A stretch of 64,000 nucleotides of DNA from Ostreococcus lucimarinus (lineage: Eukaryota). The notes beneath the pieces are model-generated. The model was not told where the DNA came from. It did no database searches and was given only the letters and a program-made list of their open reading frames with translations. Location of the stretch: NCBI GenBank assembly GCA_000092065.1, contig CP000583.1; one strand, 5' to 3'. Of the stretch, positions 52,211 through 55,200 are shown in pieces. The stretch's first letter is position 1. Each line of letters begins with the position of its first letter. Position numbers and translations under genes: made by a program.

Positions 52211-55200
52211 CTACAGTACGGACTCAAGAGACCGGTTGGGGGGCAGCAGATCAGCCATTTCGCTCTTCAAACGCTCGAGAGCGTCCGCGTACGAAATGTG
52301 CGCGTTCTCTGTCTTTTTGCTCAACAACCTCCGCCAGCGAGCAAACAATGCCTCCAACGTTCGGGCACTACGAACGTAAGGAAGCACGACTTCCCACACG
52401 TACCGCATATTTTCCGTGCCCAGCCAGGTTGTTCTGTCCACCTGGAACGCACCCGCGCCGCCGCCTTTTTCGGCGAGCGCGGCCAAGGCGAACGCGATGA
52501 CGGCGTCTTCGAGGTCCGACCACATAAGATCGCCGGACCGCGTCTCGCCGTGCTCGTCGATGAGTCGCTTCGCGTTCTCGAGGAGCGCCTTGGCCTGAGC
52601 GTCGAGCGTCGCTTTTTTGTCCCTCTCTTTGGGCTCGATGTCCTCGTACTTCGCCGTTTCGCTCTTCAAACGCTCGAGAGCGTCCGCGTACGAAATGGAA
52701 TTGTTCTCTGTCTTTTTGCTCAACACCTTCCGCCAGCGAGCACACAATGCCACCGGCATTCGGCCACTACGAACGTAAGGAAGCACGACTTCCCACACGT
52801 ACCGCATATTTTCCGTGCCCAGCCAGGTTGTTCTGTCCACCTGGAACGCACCCGCGCCGCCGCCTTTTTCGGCGAGCGCGGCCAAGGCGAACACGATGAC
52901 GGCGTCTTCGAGGTCCGACCACATAAGCTTGCCGGACCGCGTCTCGCCGTGCTCGTCGATGAGTCGCTTCGCGTTCTCGAGGAGCGCCTTGGCCTGAGCG
53001 TCGAGCGTCGCTTTTTTGTCCCTCTCTTTGGGCTCGATGTCCTCGTACTTCGCCGTTTCGCTCTTCAAACGCTCGAGAGCGTCCGCGTACGAAATGGAAT
53101 TGTTCTCTGTCTTTTTGCTCAACACCTTCCGCCAGCGAGCACACAATGCCTCCGACGTTCGGGCACTACGAACGTAAGGAAGCACGACTTCCCACACGTA
53201 CCGCATATTTTCCGTGCGCAGCGCGGTTGTTCTGTCCACCTGGAACGCACCCGCGCCGCCGCCTTTTTCGGCGAGCGCGGCCAAGGCGAACGCGATGGCG
53301 GCGTCTTCGAGGTCCGACCACATAAGATCGCCGGACCGCGTCTCGCCGTGCTCGTCGATGAGTCGCTTCGCGTTCTCGAGGAGCGCCTTGGCCTGAGCGT
53401 TTAGCGTCGCCTCCGTACTCGCCCCCACTTCAGGGCGGAGCACGTATTTTTCAGCAATGCTCGCGTACTTGGCGTCGTATGTGTCTCCGTTCGCCGCGGC
53501 GAGAAGAACGCCAAAAATCAGGCGACGCATGTTCAATTGTTTGCCCGCGCGTGCGTCGACATCGCTGTACGCAGCCGCGAAGTTCTCTTTCGAGAATTTT
53601 GCGACATCGACTTTTTTGTCCGTCGATTCCATGCGACTTCGCCAGAACGTTATGAACCATGTGATTGGGGCGGACAAGCCCCCTCGAAGCAACTCTCGTA
53701 ATTGTCGTGCATTGATTGCGTCACTCTCGCGGGCGGATGCGGTTTCCACGCGCGCTACCGAACGCGCTTCCTCGGGTGAAAGCGTACCCTCGGCGCTGTG
53801 AATCAAAACGAGTAGTGAACGCAGCGCCTGCGGATACCGAATCCAATGAGCGACGAGTCGTCCGCTCAAGGCGTCACCGTACTGTGATGTCTTCGTGTGC
53901 ATCTTCGTGATCCTATATAGCTCCATGTAGACCGCCTTACTTGGCAGAATTATTTCTGCGTCGCGAAACCAAATTTCCAGCGCCGCTTCGAGACGGTCGG
54001 GTTGGCTTCGGCAAGCTTCTCCCAGGAACGCCGTAAGGAATTCCTTGTTACCCAGCGAATCGATGAGAGCGCGCGCATGACCGCCGTTTGCGTCAAAACG
54101 GAGCAAGTCTCGAAATAACGAGAGGATTGCGCCGTCTTCAATGTCGCACGCCTTCTCGTCGCCGCCGAAGAAGCGCGCCGTGAGCGACCGCGAGGACGGC
54201 TGCGCGCCCGATCCATTTCCGTTCGAGACCGCCTCGGCGCCCGCCAAAAGATCGACAAAGGCACTCCAAAAGTTTTGCGTGAAGAAAACGAGCAGCCGAT
54301 TTACTAGGTCAGGCGAGACTGTCGAGTCGGCAAAGATCGTCTCGTGACGTGCGAGCACTATGCTGCTCATGGTGCGTACCGCAGTCGCGGCGCGGTCGGT
54401 GTCTTCTCCGTAACAGCGCAGCACCCACGGGTTTGTGGCGAAGCCGGCAGTGTCTGCCATGGAGACGACCGGCACCTTGCGGTGACCGGCGATGCGAATG
54501 CCCGGCGTCGCTCGGTTCAAGGCCCACGTCGAACCCAGCTCGATCCACGTTTTCAGAAAATAGGTCCAGACTATTTCAACAAACATTCCATCGAACGCGC
54601 CCAGAGCAGCGAGCGCGTGCATTCGTACGTATTTCGGCTTGTTCGACTTGTGCGTCGCGCGGTACTCGAGGACAAAGGCCACGAATGCGCTGAGCAGTCG
54701 TCCCATTCGACGTCTCGTCGGGTGAGTGATGGCGTGGAACCGGACGTTGGCGTCGACGATAGGTTCCCAGCACTTTGATGGATTGCCGCTCACCGTGAAG
54801 TCGACGTAACGGACGAGCGTGTTGTCTCTCGCTCGAATGTGCGCTTGCTGCGCGTTGTCGCCGTCACTAATGAGGTAGTTTCGATGCTCTCCCAAGCGTG
54901 TTGAAAACCAGCGCTCCGATTCGCCGACGTACGCGCCTTCATCGGACCGCACCAGCCACACGTACGCGTTGACCGGCTCAGCGTACAACCTCGCCTTCAG
55001 GTCGCCGCGCGAGTCGCGATGTTCTCGAGACTTCAACCAATTCGATAACGTTCGTAGGTGCTCCATGAGTTCTAGCGCCCCCGACTTGTCGTCACCCAGC
55101 GTCTCGCCGACGTCGTAAAATTGCTCCACAAAAAAAGCCGGGACGTGCGTCGTACTAAAGTACGTGTGGCGCCAGGTTGACGTGTCCGCTAGATGTCCCG

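Follow-up and report, generated by a model that had tools for sequence, protein, structure and literature searches.

The window analyzed here is a stretch of 64,000 nucleotides (nt) of nuclear DNA from Ostreococcus lucimarinus CCE9901, a green picoalga, and several of its open reading frames (ORFs) match proteins of that genome exactly. It carries a giant gene, a single ORF of 1536 amino acids (aa), and residues ~620-745 of its product plausibly form a highly divergent nuclease domain of the GIY-YIG type. This reading is unproven and is given a probability of roughly 45% on the basis of sequence comparison. A GIY-YIG core had been proposed at this site in a preliminary description of the stretch; its signature residues proved to be conserved and Pfam GIY-YIG is the sole family reported for it, but the curated cut-off of that family is not reached and one of the proposed Glu/Asn pairs had to be rejected. 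Membership in the GIY-YIG family therefore cannot be claimed. The giant gene and the elements of the candidate domain, all on the minus strand, are as follows.

52211-56821, minus strand: giant gene, single ORF of 1536 aa, corresponding to XP_001416876.1 / UniRef A4RU04 of O. lucimarinus CCE9901.
54824-54964, minus strand: candidate N-terminal half of a GIY-YIG domain, with YVWLVRS (beta1), GAYVGES (beta2), RWFSTRLGEHRNYLIS (Arg/His helix) and NAQQAHIRAR.
54884-54900, minus strand: candidate catalytic pair within R-L-G-E-H, Arg (codon 54898-54896) and His (codon 54886-54884), invariant in all lineages.
54626-54730, minus strand: block ITHPTRRRMGRLLSAFVAFVLEYRATHKSNKPKYV, near-invariant across lineages, with the sole conserved candidate Glu (LEYR, codon 54667-54665).
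54515-54526, minus strand: WALN, invariant Trp-Ala-Leu-Asn.
54746-54772, minus strand: CWEPIVDAN, the Glu/Asn candidate proposed first and rejected here; across lineages its Glu position reads E/Q/A and its Asn position N/H/R.

The motif peptide NAYVWLVRSDEGAYVGESERWFSTRLGEHRN is encoded at 54970-54878 on the reverse strand, inside the 1536-aa ORF, where NAYVWLV starts at 54970, YVGES starts at 54931 and EHRN ends at 54878. It had originally been placed a few bases away, at 54975-54890, and its spacing had been read correctly: a Tyr, 10 residues and Tyr-Val-Gly, followed by an Arg at +9 and a His at +13 from the Gly. Further downstream, LEYR lies at 54670-54659 and WALNR spans 54526-54512.

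Homologues of the protein are few. Apart from near-identical metagenomic variants, a word-indexed search returned a single protein, P0003, with 50% identity, and a HMMER profile of the region run against 1.84 billion representative proteins recovered just P0003 and a 37-aa fragment. A DNA-pattern scan of Joint Genome Institute (JGI) metagenomes added a third lineage (L015-L017), with 44-46% identity to each of the other two and a G+C content of 52.8%. The protein family is restricted to a few Ostreococcus-like marine picoalgae. Conservation of the motif among orthologues had been suggested as a check on the first proposal, and the Tyr, the Tyr-Val-Gly, the Arg and the His were all found to be invariant: across the three lineages, which are 44-50% identical overall, the protein reads Y-x-W-x-V ... 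G-A-Y-V-G-E-[ST]-x-R-x-x-S-x-R-L-x-x-H-R without exception. The presumed beta1 strand takes the form Y-[VI]-W-[LI]-V, with its invariant Tyr and Trp aligned to positions 3-4 of the Pfam GIY-YIG profile, and in the equally invariant "YIG" strand, G-A-Y-V-G-E-[ST], the Tyr-to-Tyr spacing is that of I-TevI. This hairpin-like motif pair is followed by Arg-x3-His (R36 and H40 of the three-lineage alignment), in the same register as the front of the profile. Furthermore, the part of the protein from the motif to about residue 760 is its best-conserved portion, with 68-75% identity as opposed to 50% overall. The Glu of VLEYR, the Asn of WALN, the Asn of SN.P and the block ITHPTRRRMGRLL are invariant too, and the WALN Asn is a possible counterpart of the GIY-YIG Asn. 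Two sets of Glu/Asn candidates had been named initially; LEYR and WALN are conserved, whereas CWEPIVDAN is replaced by CWQPVVDTH and CWAPVIDAR in the other lineages and does not keep the residues in question.

The Pfam GIY-YIG family (PF01541, clan CL0418) is represented by a profile of 78 positions with a curated cut-off of 22.6 bits, and was scanned together with the other models among 24,736 Pfam families. When short native segments (39-63 aa) were used, PF01541 was the sole family reported in all three lineages. The window segments reach 12.6-13.2 bits (E 0.11-0.17), those of P0003 12.6-12.8 bits (E within 0.11-0.18) and those of L017 and L016 18.3-19.3 bits (E 0.0014-0.003). In the whole 1154-aa L017 protein, PF01541 is again the top match, at the homologous position (12.9 bits, E 0.14). 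That previously unseen homologues score the same or higher counts for the motif, since a chance match picked by eye is expected to regress. In a sensitivity check on an edited sequence, deletion of a single residue (the W of ERWFST) raised the PF01541 score to 14.4 bits (E 0.047). A second profile was built from 22 reference sequences, namely 10 phage I-TevI-like enzymes, I-TevI, 10 UvrC N-termini and YhbQ; it is narrow, as the seed search for GIY-YIG relatives had given nearly only UvrC fragments. The resulting hidden Markov model finds its best local match at the motif site in every homologue, but at only ~0-3 bits. The GIY-YIG pattern [YF].[ILVMFW].{5,14}Y[IVT]G.[STA].{3,7}R.{3}[HY] fits all 22 real domains, occurs once in the six-frame translation of the 64 kb, at the motif site, and was matched by 5 of 20,000 protein shuffles, figures that are optimistic because the pattern was written with the target already known.

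Several results weigh against a GIY-YIG domain. All PF01541 scores fall under the cut-off, and the best of them, 19.3 as opposed to 22.6 bits, was obtained with a hand-chosen segment of a homologue. The window score alone is not significant, because at 12-13 bits many chance family matches are expected per 64 kb. Neither the full window protein nor pieces of it of 120-195 aa gave a GIY-YIG match in Pfam even at E <= 10, and the full protein gave none in NCBIfam, PHROGs or PADLOC. Where PF01541 does align, only its N-terminal part is involved (positions 3-46 of 78 with a 63-aa window segment, 4-31 with the best L017 segment), which corresponds approximately to beta1, beta2 and the Arg/His helix, and the profile still misses the second half when a presumed insert is deleted from the sequence. 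Comparison by hhalign with a 5-seed and the 22-sequence GIY-YIG alignment yielded probabilities of 1-8%. Profile searches of the PDB with alignments of 217, 176 and 54 aa found no GIY-YIG chain, KtrA and GST appearing as noise, and among the 1.84 billion proteins the region profile finds no relative outside its own family. In addition, the invariant R-L-x-x-H lies one residue farther from the Gly than in any of the 22 reference domains, I-TevI among them. A search of phages and plasmids with the domain (tblastn) gave nothing or noise, including one unrelated match in a Gordonia phage. Two AlphaFold2 runs (217 and 139 aa), based on 3-sequence alignments that left out the third lineage, reached predicted local distance difference test (pLDDT) values of 32 and 35; in both of these low-confidence models, which carry little weight, YVWLVRS and AYVGES are strands and RRRMGRLL...LEYR forms a long helix.

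The most likely account of this pattern, judged from the alignments, is that the first half of a GIY-YIG domain is recognizable and that the second half has been remodeled by an insert or has diverged too far to align. On this view, a lineage-specific insert of ~30 residues would break up the second half of the fold, the metal-binding Glu could be the invariant one in VLEYR, and the giant protein would be expected to cut DNA.

Nearly as likely as such a divergent GIY-YIG domain is a look-alike, that is, a short motif arisen by chance or convergence, in which a beta-hairpin and an Arg/His-rich helix belong to a novel non-nuclease fold and are conserved together with the whole central region of the protein. 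Some look-alike is expected when 64 kb are scanned by eye in six frames, and such an origin would agree with the uniformly sub-threshold scores, the alignment of merely ~30-45 residues and a second half that goes unrecognized. The surrounding 150 residues, moreover, are equally well or better conserved and match nothing known. It is less easily reconciled with the fact that, out of 24,736 models, three diverged lineages return just one, that of the family named beforehand, and that the same family is the top match of a full-length homologue. The matching residues are, in fact, the signature positions of the GIY-YIG family itself, and the corresponding pattern is rare in shuffles.

A further alternative concerns the remainder of the giant protein. 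The full ORF (52211-56854, minus strand) comprises 1547 aa from a GTG codon and 1536 aa from the first ATG (56821); the 1536-aa translation is identical to XP_001416876.1, which UniProt labels "OTU domain-containing protein". No literature on this protein or its architecture was found. Outside the candidate domain two regions stand out.

56381-56704, minus strand: OTU-like cysteine-protease region at the N-terminal end; its Cys loop reads GGGDCQFHA, its His loop MHYES.
52254-53351, minus strand: three tandem C-terminal repeats of 399 nt (133 aa), variable in copy number.

The preliminary description had placed the motif between OTU and Myb-like modules. The OTU part holds to some extent: the region matches Pfam PF02338 with 18.9 bits (E 0.0022), below the cut-off of 23.3, and its loops DCQFHA and HYES are kept in P0003, but the domain is absent in L017, whose 1154-aa protein starts at a point equivalent to residue ~250 and has nothing OTU-like upstream. 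On L017 (8936-12400, plus strand; upstream interval 7500-8935 examined) the ORF opens at a conserved "DEPxSPP...KRxAQxHxSPTY" block, and it is this block, rather than the OTU region, that marks the beginning of the conserved core. As the OTU domain lacks a counterpart in one lineage, it is an accessory part, and the conserved core consists of residues ~250-1150 plus the repeats, with the candidate nuclease motif inside it. An acidic Glu/Asp low-complexity run (55740-55820, minus strand; residues ~320-356) divides the N-terminal part from the core and is shorter in P0003. The Myb-like part found no backing in Pfam or the PDB: no Myb or SANT match was obtained in Pfam at E <= 1, no other family was detected in the C-terminal repeats, and when one 133-aa repeat was searched against the PDB, the only match was a weak one (E 0.22), to a chain of a DNA polymerase (1d5a). 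Three repeats are present in the reference (1536 aa); several metagenomic variants (1403 aa) and the other lineages have two. When the repeat region was crudely compared with that of a 93%-identical variant, non-synonymous change exceeded synonymous change, the repeats making this alignment unreliable; the substitutions separating the protein from that variant are too few for any inference from the ratio of non-synonymous to synonymous change (dN/dS).

With the OTU catalytic loops present in two lineages, the region might descend from a GIY-YIG nuclease that no longer cuts and instead has a structural or DNA-binding role within a protein related to chromatin or ubiquitin, in which the OTU domain, where present, would be the working enzyme. 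A C-terminal half whose Glu and Asn cannot be aligned and a large insert after the second helix would fit this alternative, which is nonetheless unlikely: strict invariance of the two Tyr, the Arg and the His is unexpected once catalysis has been lost, VLEYR still offers an invariant Glu and SN.P and WALN invariant Asn residues, and it is the OTU domain that proves dispensable in L017, not the motif region. A Penelope-like retroelement was also considered as the source of the motif and rejected, since no reverse transcriptase is present.

The giant gene lies head-to-head with a gene of another kind, and this arrangement is found in all three lineages (window, L001 and L017). The features concerned are listed below.

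58380-59939, plus strand: DNA (cytosine-5) methyltransferase-like gene, 519 aa, XP_001416586.1, divergent from the giant gene.
56822-58379, no strand: spacer of 1.56 kb between the divergent genes, (CG)n-rich with ~67% G+C, presumed to be a shared promoter region.
L001:5875-7587 (minus strand), L001:14051-15532 (plus strand) and L017:5859-7517 (minus strand): methyltransferase-like copies, identified by homology to the window gene.

XP_001416586.1 contains the motifs E.GSG, ASPLC, ENPH, SYC..RK.TD and RIP.AL. No variation is seen within the family in E.(G/C)SG, in the Cys of SP[PLS]C, in ENPH or in RK.TD, and SYC and RIP.AL are shared as well; where SPPC is usual, SPLC stands in the window copy and SPSC in its L001 orthologue. 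Of the two copies on L001, the second, downstream paralogue stands nearer to the window gene, with 47% identity. The methyltransferase-like neighbors of the giant gene in L001 and L017 match PHROG 757, "DNA methyltransferase", with E values of 1.4e-7 and 2.7e-7, whereas the L001 orthologue of the window gene reaches only E 0.28 with it and the window copy has no match in Pfam, PHROGs, NCBIfam or PADLOC. The family as a whole fails Pfam (PF00145) and NCBIfam, and surveys of DNA methyltransferases (DNMTs) in the Mamiellales would consequently not count its members.

In the window, the neighbors of the pair are ordinary eukaryotic genes encoding SET/PHD, RabGAP and BEACH/WD40 proteins, a kinase and a KH/SAP/WW protein, and in each lineage the pair is flanked by different, unrelated host genes (window 50314-61967; L001 1-15947; L017 1-20645). 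These differing surroundings fit either mobility or local rearrangement. A search for terminal repeats around the pair gave only low-complexity (CG)n matches, and no relatives of either gene were found in viral contigs. The (CG)n-laden, G+C-rich spacers on both sides of the giant gene (56855-58379 and 51355-51900) share imperfect low-complexity repeats. Long Arg-rich ORFs in these spacers, on both strands (e.g., 56851-58629, minus strand, 592 aa), are artefacts of composition; comparable peaks in G+C are present in other parts of the window, and the spacers may be ordinary intergenic sequence. Between the methyltransferase-like and TPMT-like genes, at 60157-60262, lies an A+T-rich 30-nt unit, GCTTAAATAAGATATCAATCGCGCTCGAAA, in ~3.5 tandem copies.

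A DNA-directed function of the giant protein gains in plausibility from its link with a methyltransferase-like gene. If the candidate domain is a GIY-YIG nuclease, the variable 133-aa repeats may supply target binding, the product of the adjacent gene may act on the same DNA, protecting or marking it, and the conserved head-to-head pair could represent a modification-plus-nuclease cassette. In its strongest form, this proposal describes a self-contained, restriction-modification- or homing-like cassette of eukaryotic nuclear genomes that has moved between chromosomal sites in Ostreococcus-like algae, with the giant protein cutting at targets set by its repeats; it might help to defend the genome, prasinoviruses being one example of a target, or be a selfish element. 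We regard a system of this scope as improbable.

A working GIY-YIG nuclease in this position would represent a new architecture for the fold, in the middle of a eukaryotic protein of 1150-1536 aa that carries tandem repeats in variable number and, optionally, an OTU protease. The nuclease gene would be genetically linked to an atypical DNA-methyltransferase-like gene, one overlooked by standard Pfam-based DNMT surveys, and a nuclease and a methyltransferase kept together at three different chromosomal sites in picoalgae would point to a eukaryotic system that is mobile or resembles restriction-modification. Should the motif be a chance match, the protein would still be a lineage-restricted orphan, of modest interest only.

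Among known systems, I-TevI was the first to be compared. The sequence quoted for it in the preliminary description is right: it agrees with phage records at 100% identity, the Arg standing at +8 and the His at +12. The giant protein shares with it the Tyr-x10-Tyr-Val-Gly spacing, an [ST] two residues past the Gly, Arg-x3-His in the next helix and, after that helix, a loosely similar H-x3-L-x2-G ... Q segment. The Arg and His of the motif fall where I-TevI has R27 and H31, offset by one residue. In contrast to I-TevI, neither beta3 nor a Glu helix nor an Asn at the expected distance can be recognized in the giant protein, and it is without the linker and helix-turn-helix DNA-binding domain. 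Its candidate domain lies mid-protein in 1150-1536 aa encoded by a eukaryotic nuclear gene, and the profile comparison is not significant. With the N-terminal domain of UvrC and Cho it shares the core YVG-x-[ST/A]...R-x3-[Y/H]. By eye, in an alignment without statistical or profile support, ITHPT...VLEYR..H.SNKPKY also resembles the UvrC helix; the helix before the Glu is then ~9 residues longer than in UvrC and the terminal Asn is replaced by Val, and the UvrBC and RNase H-like domains are missing.

GIY-YIG restriction endonucleases are paired with a C5 methyltransferase in type II systems of the Eco29kI, Cfr42I and Hpy188I type. The arrangement described here resembles them in that a candidate GIY-YIG gene and a DNA-methyltransferase-like gene adjoin each other and stay together across lineages. 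It differs in its nuclear eukaryotic locus, in a candidate nuclease that is 5-10 times larger and carries extra domains, and in a methyltransferase-like partner that fails PF00145 and, in the window copy, has SPLC rather than SPPC. A last comparison concerns the GIY-YIG class of Penelope-like elements, the consensus of which is YIGxTxRxLxxRxxEH. A sequence of this class, not itself a database record, is accepted by Pfam as GIY-YIG (E 1.7e-6). Set against this consensus, the motif of the giant protein has the same distances from Gly to Arg (+9) and from Gly to His (+13) and the same E-H pair, the third lineage (L017) reading YVGETERRLSLRLAHH.

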